A DNA stretch of 60,596 nt from Candidatus Limnocylindrus sp. (GCA_044236365.1 JBIIGQ010000001.1:1-60596); one strand, 5' to 3'; numbered from the stretch's first letter, positions 37,370-41,021 are shown. Made by a program: numbers and translations. The notes: generated from the sequence alone by a model not told the origin.

Positions 37370-38263
37370 TCAATCTAGGCTGAGATACGGAACTAATCGC
37401 AGGGGCAATAGGGCCCGCCCTTCTTCTGGGATGTCCTCGTAGTATTTGATCCAGAGTTCGATTAGGCGGTTACCGTCGATGAGCGTGATCCTGTCTTTTG
37501 AATCGCGAGCTGAGAGCCGCGCCTCTTTAGTAAAACTAGAAAGCGTGACGATCACTCCGGTTTCACCGTCATTGATTTTGCTTGCAGTTCTTTCAACAAC
37601 ATCAGCGGCGACTGCAGTTTCCGAGTAACGCTTTACTTGGACTTTGATCCGAGTGCCCTTTGCACCAAGTGGATCTTCATATGCGACGATGTCAAGACCT
37701 CGGTCTGCGCCATCGTCGGCCTTGTAAACAACGTGCCAACCCATGGCTCCTAGTAGATGGGCGACCAAATTTTGGAATGACTGCCATGACTGATTCGCAA
37801 GATGCTTACGAATTTGTGCGACAGCCTCGCCTTCCGCTTCTTCAATTGACAGTGCAACTAGTGACTGGGACTCTTCTTCACCCAGCTGGTCGGCTTCTGT
37901 CGGATCAATTTCTTGGTCCCGCGAGGCCTTCCACGACTTGTACGCTGCTGATGCCGCTGCCTGGAAACTAGAGGCGTCTGGGTACTTGCTCAACGCCTCA
38001 GCGCCATCAGTAGTCGCGGACCACATACCCCGCTCTTTCACAATCCACCCGGCGCGCACCTGCGCAATGTTAAAAAAGTGGGTGCTAACCCGATACTTTG
38101 TAGAGGAAGGGTGCGTTTTGTAGTAACCCAGTTCTTCAGGAAGTGGCGCTTGGAGTTGTTCTAGTTTCTCCATGACCTCATTTCTATGCATTGGAGCGCC
38201 AGCTTTTACGAGAATTTCAAGTAGTAGCCTCTGTCGCTCGGCCATGCGTTCTCTTTTACTCAT
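37370..38263 (-). CDS. Mrr-like restriction endonuclease (winged-helix N-domain plus PD-(D/E)xK Mrr_cat)
   Basis: 297 aa. C-terminal FQNLVAHLLGAMGW, GADRGLDIVAY and IKVQVKRY pattern typical of Mrr_cat. Confidence 0.8.
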   Translation of the reverse strand: MSKRERMAERQRLLLEILVKAGAPMHRNEVMEKLEQLQAPLPEELGYYKTHPSSTKYRVSTHFFNIAQVRAGWIVKERGMWSATTDGAEALSKYPDASSFQAAASAAYKSWKASRDQEIDPTEADQLGEEESQSLVALSIEEAEGEAVAQIRKHLANQSWQSFQNLVAHLLGAMGWHVVYKADDGADRGLDIVAYEDPLGAKGTRIKVQVKRYSETAVAADVVERTASKINDGETGVIVTLSSFTKEARLSARDSKDRITLIDGNRLIELWIKYYEDIPEEGRALLPLRLVPYLSLD

Positions 38264-38295
38264 GTTCGCTCTCCTCTACTGAATTGCTTCTACGC

Positions 38296-39219
38296 TTACG
38301 CGCTGCGCAATAGCGGCTGCACATTAATGCTTGGGTGTAGCTCGGGAAAGGTGTCAAATCTATTCTGTAGTTTTTCAGGACGAAATTGACTGACATCCCA
38401 TCTAAAGAACTCATTTGGCTGCATCCGCGATAACCCTCGCGCGTCTGGAATCACAAAATCGCAGCCAGTGTCCGATTGAATTACCCACTTCCCGGAGAGG
38501 ACCAAGTATCGGCCGTGCCACTTTCGGGTGCCGTCAATTTTCATTTGCTCTCGAACTGAAACTCTGAAGTTTGTGCGTAAACTTGTTGCCAGGCTCTCAA
38601 GCATATTCCGCATGCGCATCGCATGGAACACAGGATAAGACTGGCTCCCTGGCTCCCAAAATGAGTTAATGGTGATGCTTGGAGATTCCGCGTCGGCGGT
38701 TCGTAATAGATCCGCAAATAAACCTAGGGTGGCAATTGCTGGAGACTCGTTTTCATAGATTTTTCTAGCGAGATATGGGTCGAAAATGCTCAAATGTGTT
38801 TGACCGTGCAGCGCCCTTTGAAGTGGTTGGATTAATGGGAAACTCGCTGCAGGCCCCGGGAAGAGCAACTTCTCTGGGTTATCATGGATTACGAACCCGT
38901 CATCAACGGCAGCATCCCAAATGGGACTTGCCGTCGTTTCATACATCTGCGCTTCGTTTTTGGTGATTCGCCAGGCGGCGCCATGGGTAGCAATCGTTGC
39001 CTCGTCAACCCAGTGAATCTCGCTAAGTAGTTTCCCAATCAGATCTTTTTTTGGGCTCACTAGACGTTCAGAATTACTCATCAAGTTGATTCGCTCGTCA
39101 TCCGGCGCACTGGCAATGCAGTGGTCTCGGATTTTTCCAAGAAGGCCGCAGAGTGTTTGCTCATGTTCAATTGCCAGAGATTTTAGTACGCCACGCTCAA
39201 AGATCACCGCGCCGATCAT
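38296..39219 (-). CDS. uncharacterised protein with MIT_C/PLD-like C-terminal domain (motif-level inference)
   Basis: 307 aa. LSIFDPYLARK and WHGRYLVLSGKWVIQSDTGCDFV parallel the DPYI and HDREIRF..GW.I..GRGLDYF blocks of the MITD1 C-terminal domain. The ATG lies 2 nt after the ATPase stop. Confidence 0.6.
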   Translation of the reverse strand: MIGAVIFERGVLKSLAIEHEQTLCGLLGKIRDHCIASAPDDERINLMSNSERLVSPKKDLIGKLLSEIHWVDEATIATHGAAWRITKNEAQMYETTASPIWDAAVDDGFVIHDNPEKLLFPGPAASFPLIQPLQRALHGQTHLSIFDPYLARKIYENESPAIATLGLFADLLRTADAESPSITINSFWEPGSQSYPVFHAMRMRNMLESLATSLRTNFRVSVREQMKIDGTRKWHGRYLVLSGKWVIQSDTGCDFVIPDARGLSRMQPNEFFRWDVSQFRPEKLQNRFDTFPELHPSINVQPLLRSA

Positions 39220-39221
39220 GC

Positions 39222-41021
39222 TTAGGTCAGCAGCTCTCGATACCCATCATTCGCCGATTCATTTGGCCACGGTGTCGCCATTGTGCCGTTCGGGGCAATT
39301 TCAAGCTGCGTCACGGTGGACGATCCGTTGACACGTGTCACATATAAAATGGCCACTTCTGCTTCGCTTAGCTGTGGTTGCATTTTCCCTGACCCAATGT
39401 GGGCCAAGATTCGGCGCAGGATATGCTCCGAGTGGGTTTCTACGAAGACTGGCCCGACACGATTCCTTGCGGCAATCGCAAGAAAAGTTGCAACACTTTT
39501 TTGCATCTGCGGGTGGAGGTGCGTTTCTGGTTCCTGAATTGCAATCGCCTTATGTTTTTCTATCAGGCTGCTGGATAGCACTGGTAGTACTTTTTGCAAG
39601 CCTAAACCATGGTCGACAATGTTCATGCTGCCGGGCATGCCTTCTTCGCGAATTTTAACGGCAAATGCGCCACTTTCCGGGTCATTGGGATTAGACCACC
39701 GCTCCAATTGGAACTCATAGTCGATCCCAGCCACTTTTAAGGCCTGTTCAAGCTGACTCCATTCACTGTTTTCTTCATTCGCAGTAGCGGATAGCAGGCT
39801 GCCGACACTATCGGGCTGTTCAGACCGTGAGAACAGTGAGATTCTGCCAATCGATTCTCGCTCTGCAGCGACTATGTGAACGTCTCGGACAACAGTTCGG
39901 AAGGATTGGGCGGACTCCGTCATCATAATCGCGAGATTCAGGTTGGGAACAACGCCGCCTGGAAATGCGTCCATTAGGGGATGGCCCCGTAGATCTGCGC
40001 GTACCAGGGAATGTCTACTTGGGCTCCAACTATTGATCCCGATTGAAGTGGCTTTTTGGGCATATGCAATGGATCTTGCTAATTCAAGAATGACTTCATC
40101 CGGCACAGTGACATTTCTCGCCAACTCAATAACTGCATCAAGCGGTGTCACTTTCTGGTCGCTCCGGTTCCCTTTGGACAGATGTCGCACCACCGCGTCA
40201 AGAAATTCTTCATCATTAAACAGCGGAATTCCAGCATTCTTCAATTGCTCGCGCATTAACTCGTCATATCCGTTCAACGCTGGATAGTGCTCCTCAGCGT
40301 AGGTGTGATCATATAGCCCAATGCCTTCGGTGGCCCGGGTGTTTCGTCCTTCGTAATTCTGAGAGGCAATTAGCGTGCAGAGAAGAGCGCCCCACTTTCG
40401 CGCTGTAGCTAGCCAAATTGGATGTTCTACGTCAATGAAAGAGCATCTGAGCGGAATCGTATCTTTCATTCGTAAGCTCAGTAGGTCATCAACCTCTGTG
40501 GGAATCCTAAACTCAGCAAGATGTTGAATGCTTTGGCCAACATAGACCCGTAGCCCGCGGATGCGCGCACGCTCATCAATCTTGCCGCGTTGCTTCAACT
40601 CAGCAGCGGAAGGAGTACGGAAGATGACGCCTAGGCCAAGATCGTAATCATTATCATCAATGTACTCGGAGTAGATATCTGGATAGGTTGTGTGATGCAG
40701 TCGATTCCCCGGATTTGGACTCTGTAGGTGCAACCCTTTAATGTAAATTGCGGTTTCGCTTTCTTGCTGTGGGTTACGCTTATGCGGCAAGCTTTTTGCC
40801 CCGCCAATGTTAAGACTGCCCCCAGACGTGTTGAGGTATCCACTGCGTTCGTCCATTGAGTTACGAAGCAGATTTAAGGCCAGCAGTGGCGTGGATTTCC
40901 CTGCCGAGTTCTCGCCGAATACGAGGGTTACTGGTCGAAGTGGAAAAAACGCGGCCTTTTCATACGCGCGAAAATTTCGAAGGAGTACTCCAGAGAGTCG
41001 CAAACTGCTTGAACTGCCCAA
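39222..41021 (-). CDS. ABC/OLD-like ATPase (AAA_15 / DUF3696 type)
   Basis: 599 aa. Walker A GENSAGKST, signature-like GLGLQ, Walker B AIAIQEPETHLHP and H-loop ETHSEH. A long insert of about 430 aa separates Walker A from Walker B. Confidence 0.8.
   Translation of the reverse strand: MGSSSSLRLSGVLLRNFRAYEKAAFFPLRPVTLVFGENSAGKSTPLLALNLLRNSMDERSGYLNTSGGSLNIGGAKSLPHKRNPQQESETAIYIKGLHLQSPNPGNRLHHTTYPDIYSEYIDDNDYDLGLGVIFRTPSAAELKQRGKIDERARIRGLRVYVGQSIQHLAEFRIPTEVDDLLSLRMKDTIPLRCSFIDVEHPIWLATARKWGALLCTLIASQNYEGRNTRATEGIGLYDHTYAEEHYPALNGYDELMREQLKNAGIPLFNDEEFLDAVVRHLSKGNRSDQKVTPLDAVIELARNVTVPDEVILELARSIAYAQKATSIGINSWSPSRHSLVRADLRGHPLMDAFPGGVVPNLNLAIMMTESAQSFRTVVRDVHIVAAERESIGRISLFSRSEQPDSVGSLLSATANEENSEWSQLEQALKVAGIDYEFQLERWSNPNDPESGAFAVKIREEGMPGSMNIVDHGLGLQKVLPVLSSSLIEKHKAIAIQEPETHLHPQMQKSVATFLAIAARNRVGPVFVETHSEHILRRILAHIGSGKMQPQLSEAEVAILYVTRVNGSSTVTQLEIAPNGTMATPWPNESANDGYRELLT

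Follow-up and report, generated by a model that had tools for sequence, protein, structure and literature searches.

What kind of system is encoded by a three-gene cassette of low guanine-cytosine (GC) content in Candidatus Limnocylindrus sp., and how many of its genes belong together? The cassette lies in a stretch of 60,596 nucleotides (nt) (GCA_044236365.1 JBIIGQ010000001.1:1-60596), hereafter the window, in which positions are counted from the first letter, and it consists of three minus-strand genes in a row that encode an ATP-binding cassette (ABC) ATPase, a 307-amino acid (aa) partner protein, and an Mrr-like nuclease (Table 1). A preliminary description of the same DNA, made from the sequence alone, proposed that the ATPase and an MIT_C/phospholipase D (PLD)-like partner form a previously unrecognized sensor-effector pair, possibly working with the nuclease. 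The computational analysis reported here narrows the conserved unit to the ATPase and partner genes, and we favor, with moderate confidence, the interpretation that the pair is a self-contained two-gene anti-phage module, probably acting by abortive infection, that is kin to the NsnB-NsnC pair of the Menshen system and does without the NsnA sensor.

Menshen systems comprise NsnA, a proposed DNA sensor with ParB-DUF262 and ParBDB domains; NsnB, the proposed transducer, which is an ABC ATPase bearing a GxG signature and a DUF3696 helix; and NsnC, in which an N-terminal inactive PIN-like (inPIN) domain is joined to a variable effector (Li et al., 2025; PMC12065111). One class of NsnC effector, PB-PLD1, is MIT_C-like, with 2YMB as its best structural match, and combines an H-D-R motif with a conserved acidic residue. 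Many BrxL proteins carry this domain at their C-terminus, and Tdp is among its structural neighbors (PMC12065111). The pairing of an ATPase with an MIT_C/PLD-type partner is therefore not unprecedented, and the initial view that it is unrecognized is out of date, because NsnB-NsnC with PB-PLD1 was described in 2025 (PMC12065111). What is new with respect to Menshen is the absence of NsnA together with a large insert in the ATPase, and this sensor-less, inserted-ATPase architecture is not described in the literature that we consulted for Menshen-type systems. Because the Menshen survey was seeded with NsnA, loci without NsnA would escape it (PMC12065111).

The interpretation draws on several lines of evidence. 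ATPase-partner adjacency recurs in the window and five further independent lineages, down to 25% identity for the partner and 29% for the ATPase. NsnB is the best PADLOC match of the ATPase both in the window's clade and in a distant clade, and the ATPase motifs and a DUF3696-like tail are conserved. The cassette is foreign in composition, and the neighbors of the pair in the different lineages include DarT-Macro, PRTase-CE/NADAR, VapBC-like PIN/HTH, PemK, HEPN/NTase, and Mrr genes. Pairs of a probable sister family adjoin hsdS in three type I restriction-modification (R-M) operons or a gene for a prokaryotic Argonaute (pAgo). Finally, AlphaFold 3 (AF3) models of an NsnB4-NsnC2 assembly, along with PARIS and Septu, provide mechanistic precedent (PMC12065111).

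The conserved ATPase-partner pair

The ATPase stop codon (39224-39222) is separated from the partner ATG at 39219 by a 2-nt spacer, and the two genes are likely translationally coupled; a 32-nt gap that contains GAGGAG then separates the partner stop (38298-38296) from the Mrr ATG at 38263. A promoter scan upstream of the ATPase returned sites no more frequent than expected by chance or from shuffled sequence. Open reading frame (ORF) calls and composition confirm the orientation, spacing, and low GC content given in the preliminary description. GC content is 0.50-0.51 in all three genes (0.495-0.504 in the pair and 0.513 in the Mrr-like gene), with third-position GC (GC3) of about 0.50. Because these values lie far below those of the window (GC 0.61) and its flanking host-like genes (GC3 0.72-0.88), the cassette is compositionally foreign, and the evidence supports its being a horizontally acquired candidate defense locus. 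No tRNA gene was found in the window and no direct or inverted repeats flank the cassette; no search was aimed at integrase genes.

Relatives of the pair are few. Word-indexed searches recovered four partner clusters and four ATPase clusters (the four ATPase relatives being 599-602 aa long and 60-97% identical), and when 1.84 billion representative proteins were searched exhaustively with a profile, seven partner relatives emerged. In 185,579 GTDB species-representative genomes, both the partner profile and the ATPase profile were without a match, IMG/VR viral contigs held nothing for the window's partner family or for the plasmid sister partner family, a tblastn search of plasmids with the partner found no match, and JGI metagenomes returned only a contig already recovered by the other searches. 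The family is extremely rare, and its placed relatives are known from metagenomes only. The survey of homologs for conserved adjacency that the preliminary description proposed gave a uniform result: in every intact relative placed on a contig, the gene for an ATPase of 579-602 aa immediately precedes the partner gene in the same orientation, the two abutting or overlapping, and the flanking genes are different in each lineage (Table 1). The conserved unit is thus two genes, the ATPase and its partner, and not three. One distant-clade copy (L006) is split over several frames; it was considered as a pseudogene, but long-read indel errors are equally possible, and the copy is not counted as evidence.

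The ATPase matches Pfam AAA_15 (3.4e-18) and AAA_21 (5.6e-14). The motifs quoted in the preliminary description (Walker A, signature-like, Walker B, and H-loop) are all present and invariant among relatives at 60-63% identity, and Walker A, Walker B, and the H-loop are conserved in the distant-clade ATPase as well. Its designation as a DUF3696-type ATPase holds in part: Pfam DUF3696 stays below threshold (E 0.055, 14.1 bits against a cut-off of 22), whereas the C-terminal core and tail align to a true DUF3696 ATPase with an hhalign probability of 97%. The leading PADLOC match, NsnB (5.3e-36; 1.4e-35 for the distant-clade ATPase), aligns only with the N-terminal P-loop segment and residues 449-587, and it is followed by PDC-M55A, HEC-03B, AriA (1.1e-18), and many GajA models; the GajA and PtuA models match the ATPase motifs only. 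A profile search of the PDB with the ATPase returned only an OLD-family nuclease (E 0.006).

Between the two lobes of the ATPase lies a family-specific insert, about 370 aa long, that no Pfam or PADLOC model covers. The insert of about 430 aa proposed at first corresponds to the distance from Walker A to the signature-like motif (~428 aa), of which only ~250-290 aa are extra with respect to the 345-position NsnB profile. The insert is less conserved than the core, both within the clade (50-54% versus 74-79%) and toward the distant clade (23% versus 42-44%). A fused NsnA-like domain was considered for this region and rejected (hhalign probability of 0.5% against a DUF262 protein).

The partner belongs to no Pfam, NCBIfam, or PHROGs family, and its sole PADLOC match is a weak one to the C-terminus of BrxL. 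The AlphaFold2 (AF2) model that was used derives from a nine-sequence alignment (predicted local distance difference test, pLDDT, 81.6; predicted template modeling score, pTM, 0.79), and a four-sequence model (pLDDT 57.9) was discarded. When the model was compared with the PDB by Foldseek, the five best matches were MITD1 MIT_C domains (2ymb and 4a5z; E 7e-6 to 4e-4, probability 1.0, target template modeling score ~0.5), followed by bacterial and human phospholipases D; Argonaute matches (probability 0.2-0.4) were taken as noise, and the viral library BFVD gave weak matches that include PLD-family proteins, none at E <= 0.001. Pfam MIT_C appears below threshold in five distant partner relatives (E 0.003-0.15), centered on the conserved motif. 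Residues Q140, D147, T164, W234, H235, G236, R237, W245, V246, D250, G252, D254, and E270 are invariant across the family, and the histidine motif H-x-R is invariant in 13 sequences from two families, its middle residue being G in the window's family and A or S in the plasmid sister family. The C-terminal half of the partner is thus predicted to adopt a PLD superfamily fold of the MIT_C branch with an H-x-R motif, in keeping with the MIT_C/PLD-like label first given to a protein that has no Pfam match itself. As also described at first, the partner lacks HNH, TOPRIM, and helicase motifs; it does not resemble AriB, PtuB, or GajB, and none of the PADLOC partner models matches it.

The nature of this predicted domain bears on a different account of the pair, in which the ATPase controls an effector whose MIT_C-like domain is no nuclease and instead binds or acts on membrane phospholipids, or on another phosphodiester, killing or arresting the cell via the membrane. 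The nearest structures are true phospholipases D and the MIT_C domain of MITD1, which binds membranes and is apparently non-catalytic, and the partner motif is H-G-R, not the canonical H-x-K-x4-D. We nevertheless consider this account unlikely. The partner has no predicted transmembrane or lipid-anchor features, and the single-HKD PLD proteins of bacterial conflict systems (Nuc, BfiI, and NucT) are nucleases. PB-PLD1 and BrxL-HRD domains are likewise interpreted as nucleases in defense contexts (PMC12065111; PMC12839542), and a 2026 survey of BREX systems made the case for the H-R-D variant as an active HKD endoDNase (PMC12839542).

Relation to Menshen and other defense systems

Compared with Menshen, the window ATPase has the expected type of signature (GLG, for GxG) and a tail that aligns with that of a DUF3696 ATPase but stays below the Pfam cut-off, and it is directly followed by a ~300-aa two-domain partner. 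The C-terminal domain of that partner resembles PB-PLD1 in its predicted MIT_C-like PLD fold, conserved acidic residue, H-x-R motif, and weak BrxL match. Unlike Menshen, neither the window locus nor the related loci have NsnA: neither a DGxQR scan nor tblastn searches with a pair of DUF262 proteins as queries found anything in the 60.6-kb window or in L001, L003, L004, L006, L007, L012, L014, or L018; the genes that flank the pair in the window include no DUF262 gene, and no DUF262 Pfam match was found on the neighbors of the pair in related loci, several of these neighbors having no Pfam hit or not having been looked up. Because NsnA is absent, the locus is not Menshen by the published definition. 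The proteins differ as well. The window ATPase is ~250 aa longer than NsnB through its family-specific insert and matches the profile at its ends only, while the partner, which is likened to PB-PLD1 by the description of that class, has H-G-R instead of H-D-R and matches no PADLOC NsnC model.

For a version that has no sensor gene, PARIS offers the nearest working model. It also consists of two genes, its ATPase serves as a scaffold and sensor that holds a small effector active after release, as is proposed here for the window pair, and AriA models match the window ATPase. Unlike in PARIS, the window partner has a predicted PLD fold and no AriB, TOPRIM, or DUF4435 match (Pfam, PADLOC), and the ATPase is nearer to NsnB than to AriA. 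Since the locus has no TOPRIM, helicase, or HNH, it is not PARIS, Gabija, or Septu.

Two candidate systems, PDC-M55 (ATPase, Toprim-like B, and DUF262 C) and HEC-03 (a DUF3696 ATPase and a 160-aa partner), share the DUF3696/NsnB-like ATPase lineage and a directly coupled partner downstream; HEC-03 also resembles the window locus in having no DUF262 gene. Their ATPases, unlike that of the window, match their profiles over the full length and have no insert. The locus is not PDC-M55, because its partner is unmatched to PDC-M55B (at E<=0.1) and the DUF262 C component is missing, whereas in true PDC-M55 loci the B component scores 1e-26 to 1e-42 and the C component 1e-65 to 1e-125. Neither is it HEC-03, because its partner is unmatched to HEC-03A; its ATPase reaches a partial 74 bits on HEC-03B, against 367 for a true member. 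The gene order in PDC-M55 is ATPase, Toprim-like partner, and DUF262 (L016 3416-7415; L017 3308-7031), which is Menshen-like with the sensor gene last, and the window Mrr gene stands in the slot where PDC-M55 has DUF262.

The predicted fold of the partner is further shared with MITD1 MIT_C and the C-terminal 'HRD' HKD-type domain of BrxL, together with the K-to-R variant of the HKD motif. Those domains differ from the partner in protein context (an ESCRT-III adaptor and a BREX AAA+ protein), and the sequence similarity is below threshold.

The variable slot and neighboring genes

By its sequence, the third gene clearly encodes a predicted Mrr-family type IV restriction-type nuclease, as its Mrr-like label had implied. 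The protein matches Pfam Mrr_cat (1.4e-23) and, weakly, Mrr_N (0.0057), and has GLDIV and VQVK motifs of the D...Q-x-K type; Mrr/type IV restriction proteins similarly combine Mrr_cat with an N-terminal Mrr_N-like winged helix-turn-helix (wHTH). No NCBIfam model names it, and in PADLOC it matches the single-gene candidate PDC-S02 (3.5e-36) and mREase_IV (1.2e-11).

The Mrr gene is a separate, swappable neighbor in a variable slot of the same hotspot, not a conserved component, because a 98.6%-identical locus (L003) carries DarT-Macro instead and other lineages are without Mrr. The identity between L003 and the window extends over 41474-38284 and gives way to complete divergence 12 nt past the partner stop, beyond which L003 encodes DarT-Macro-MUG113 and the window Mrr-SRAP. 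The P0005 contig also has DarT-Macro in the window's Mrr slot, and the Mrr gene is in none of the other related loci found. With 98.6%-identical strains differing in Mrr or DarT-Macro from a junction defined to the nucleotide, the locus cleanly illustrates how modules are exchanged in a defense hotspot. The preliminary interpretation thus survives as a horizontally acquired candidate defense locus in which an ATPase is coupled to a small PLD-like partner, and loses both the novelty of the pairing and Mrr as a conserved member of the cassette.

The same junction bears on the proposal of a three-gene system in which the Mrr-like protein (wHTH plus PD-(D/E)xK) replaces NsnA as a DNA sensor or serves as a second effector. 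The Mrr gene may well be co-transcribed with the pair: the 32-nt gap holds its own ribosome-binding site (RBS), and co-transcription is possible because the terminator scan, which was not above shuffled expectation, found no terminator-like site on the coding (minus) strand between partner and Mrr. Its GC content matches that of the pair, its position right after the pair is the 'sensor slot' of the DUF262 gene in PDC-M55 loci, Mrr_N is among the sensor domains that occur as fusions with NsnA (PMC12065111), and the arrangement is stable across 17 metagenome contigs that carry the exact Mrr protein. However, since every one of these contigs has the window's gene order, they represent one population and count as one observation. 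With DarT-Macro in the slot in L003 and the P0005 contig, no Mrr gene in any other lineage found, and PADLOC treating such Mrr-like proteins as a single-gene candidate, a three-gene system appears improbable.

DarT-Macro (DarTG) adjoins the pair in two independent lineages, on opposite sides (L003 3243-4607; L004 1072-2388), with DarT proteins that are 44% identical, and a PRTase-CE and NADAR pair is in the matching position in a third lineage (L001 431-2168). This adjacency could reflect defense-island clustering or a functional link to DNA ADP-ribosylation. Under the second possibility the pair would be an accessory of DarTG/NADAR-type modules that, for example, recognizes or processes ADP-ribosylated DNA, and the functional unit would be larger than two genes. 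PLD-fold Tdp-type enzymes strip adducts from DNA ends, and Tdp is, as mentioned above, a structural neighbor of PB-PLD1. Yet no such module is present in the window, in the L007 and L006 lineages, or in any sister-family locus; side and spacing vary where one is present; DarTG is a stand-alone toxin-antitoxin defense system; and the pattern fits defense-island clustering. We therefore regard an accessory role in ADP-ribosylation as very improbable.

A SRAP gene (36583-37353), which encodes a YedK-like abasic-site sensor, lies 16 nt from the Mrr gene and marks the left border of the foreign segment. Its proximity suggests a further alternative, in which the pair is not anti-phage but an addiction or toxin-antitoxin-like module, or a DNA-repair ATPase-nuclease pair in a variable region. 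AAA_21 is also the AbiEii/type IV toxin-antitoxin family, the ATPase has weak RecF/Rad50-type N-terminal matches, and the L006 copy is fragmented. The probability of this account is low, as the SRAP gene is host-like in GC (0.667, GC3 0.77), unlike the cassette, and absent from all other loci, the RecF/Rad50-type matches are confined to the P-loop region, the best ATPase matches are all defense-system ATPases, and the genomic contexts are rich in defense genes.

Further from the cassette, beyond SRAP, two tandem paralogs of ~500 aa each (33556-35055 and 35073-36563) both have a signal peptide, many 'ELWRTNGT'-type repeats, and a hydrophobic C-terminal anchor. Upstream of the ATPase, a 159-aa ORF of intermediate GC (41257-41736; 0.59) encodes a Pro/Thr-rich protein with a signal peptide, conserved Cys and Trp, and no family match; it lies outside the variable slot, because its 3' part is common to the L003 variant. 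Together with an NT5C gene (41749-42228; GC3 0.80), it stands between the cassette and a 744-aa gene (42314-44548) for a secreted or membrane-anchored product that has a weak Peptidase_M1 (HExxH) match only. Because the 744-aa gene is also low in GC (GC 0.54, GC3 0.54), the AT-richer patch extends past the cassette.

Table 1. Features of the cassette in the window, and loci with related ATPase-partner pairs.
Feature or locus	Positions	Strand	Identity to window	Remarks
ATPase gene	39222-41021	-		599 aa; ABC (OLD/AAA_15-type), NsnB-like, DUF3696-like C-terminal tail
Walker A GENSAGKST	40890-40916	-		aa 36-44; core N-S-A-G-K-S-T invariant in relatives
Family-specific insert, ~370 aa, between ATPase lobes	39702-40817	-		aa 69-440; proposed sensor or oligomerization region
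C-terminal ATPase motif block (signature-like, Walker B, H-loop)	39423-39611	-		motif scan; conserved in relatives
Signature-like HGLGLQ	39594-39611	-		aa 471-476
Walker B AIAIQEPETHLHP	39510-39548	-		aa 492-504
H-loop ETHSEH	39423-39440	-		aa 528-533
DUF3696-like C-terminal tail PWPNESANDGYRELLT	39225-39272	-		aa 584-599; kept in the 29%-identical L007 ATPase
Partner (putative effector) gene	38296-39219	-		307 aa; ORF call; always directly downstream of the ATPase in relatives
Partner N-terminal alpha/beta domain	38845-39219	-		aa 1-125; alternating strands and helices in AF2 model; candidate inPIN-like docking domain
Partner C-terminal MIT_C-type PLD-fold domain (predicted)	38320-38832	-		aa ~130-300; Foldseek, and sub-threshold MIT_C in relatives
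D147 (FDPY)	38773-38790	-		invariant; PLD-fold domain
W234-H235-G236-R237	38497-38520	-		invariant; PLD-fold domain
D250/G252/D254	38455-38478	-		invariant; PLD-fold domain
Last 12 nt common to window and L003	38284-38295	-		below it, Mrr in window and DarT-Macro in L003
Mrr-like nuclease gene	37370-38263	-		297 aa; predicted type IV restriction-type; weak Mrr_N wHTH and Mrr_cat, D...QVK motif
Upstream intergenic region	41022-41256	-		ATPase RBS AGGGGG, 7-nt spacer, TTG start; common to L003
L003 and P0005 contig			97-99%	DarT-Macro downstream of pair
P0002/P0007 contig and L004			partner ~52%, ATPase 62-63%	DarT-Macro and a 192-200-aa ORF upstream of pair
L001/L002			partner 49%, ATPase 60%	PRTase-CE and NADAR upstream (L001)
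L007-L011			partner 25%, ATPase 29%	L007: KTSC upstream, VapBC-like PIN/HTH_17 pair downstream
L006, 85-kb contig	3925-6575			distant-clade pair split over several frames; MmeI_N-like, PemK, TacA-like, and HEPN/NTase genes around
L012, Methylocella tundrae NZ_LR536452.1	1-7579			plasmid; pair directly after hsdS (type I R-M); SIR2 and DUF87 pair next
L024, Azotobacter chroococcum pAcX50d	436-5891			plasmid; pair directly after hsdS, type I R-M operon
L025, Vibrio coralliilyticus p337	1-5882			plasmid; pair directly after hsdS, type I R-M operon
L014, Deinococcus sp. AJ005 p96k	557-5316			plasmid; pair directly after pAgo gene (PADLOC pAgo 7.6e-30)

Plasmid relatives and a proposed mechanism

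A tblastn search of plasmids with the ATPase returned many 'DUF3696 domain-containing' ATPases. At four plasmid loci (Table 1), the gene for a long AAA_15/DUF3696 ATPase (488-659 aa) ends in a stop codon that overlaps the beginning of an unannotated gene for a ~300-aa partner, and no DUF262 gene is annotated beside any of the four pairs. The plasmid partners are interrelated (E 1e-24 to 1e-13), belong to no Pfam or PADLOC family, and share with the window partners two motifs at equivalent positions ('hhhhD-P/R-Y/F-F' and 'H-A/S-R-Y...G-F/L-D/S'). Profile-profile comparison by hhalign links the two partner families over 121 columns of the PLD-like domain (E 1.2e-4, probability 54%), whereas individual plasmid partner sequences, set against the family profile, gave no informative hhalign result (probability 2-3%). 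On these alignments, the plasmid pairs are a probable sister family of the window's pair. They differ from it in that the ATPase inserts are not alignable (13-15% identity) and in that the pairs are set in R-M or pAgo operons, not beside DarTG or Mrr. PrrC and Rlo-type back-up modules sit in R-M operon positions like those of the plasmid pairs after hsdS, and the Deinococcus p96k pair may be a pAgo-associated effector module.

In the AF3 models of the Menshen assembly, paired DUF3696 tails clamp the NsnC N-domain in an NsnB4-NsnC2 complex, for which an analogy with Septu and PARIS has been drawn (PMC12065111). By this precedent, we infer that the window ATPase and partner would form a complex that protects against phage. 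The 599-aa ATPase probably oligomerizes and probably keeps the partner inactive, with its DUF3696-like tail on the N-terminal alpha/beta domain of the partner. It would be the ATPase itself that senses an infection-linked trigger, most plausibly through the ~370-aa insert or else the ATPase surface, and an ATP-dependent conformational change would then release or activate the partner. The PLD domain (Asp147, H235-G-R237) could then serve as a phosphodiesterase whose substrate is most likely nucleic acid, although action on lipid or no catalysis is possible. Because PLD active sites are made of two half-sites and the partner carries one, two partner copies would probably need to dimerize on activation to complete an active site.

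Several points weigh against reading the pair as an NsnB-NsnC-like anti-phage module. First, when the PDB was searched by sequence alone, neither the profile of the full partner nor a combined profile of the C-domain matched MITD1 or a PLD, and the sequence-only links between the partner and MIT_C are all below threshold. Second, because the MIT_C domain of MITD1 is apparently non-catalytic, the PLD-like domain of the partner may be no enzyme. Third, the ATPase reaches 123 bits on the NsnB profile and does so at its ends only, whereas PDC-M55A and HEC-03B ATPases reach 193-199 bits over the full length, and its Walker B has QE/EE in place of the EN described for NsnB. Finally, the family is rare and absent from the species-representative genomes searched, and because of this rarity the enrichment of defense genes around the pair rests on ~10 loci.

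A more far-reaching version of the favored reading is that such pairs constitute an unnamed, sensor-gene-independent branch of DUF3696 ABC-ATPase defense systems. The insert would replace NsnA, a half-site H-x-R PLD effector would be monomeric on the ATPase and dimerize after release, and the family would form, together with its plasmid sisters, a widespread 'guard' module backing R-M and Argonaute systems. We put this forward tentatively, as a possible but doubtful extension.

Menshen is experimentally validated, and its mechanism is unsolved, especially the signaling from NsnA to NsnB. The import of the present locus is limited in that its modular logic is familiar and the family is very rare and known from metagenomes only. 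A lineage that has an NsnB-like ATPase and a PLD-type NsnC-like effector without NsnA nevertheless suggests that the pair may work alone. The MIT_C/'HRD' PLD branch, whose domain human MITD1 and a third of BrxL proteins share, gains further evidence from this locus as a recurrent immune effector, and an unnamed sister family comes into view within R-M and pAgo operons. If confirmed, the pair would provide a minimal two-protein system for studying how an ATPase senses infection and controls its effector.

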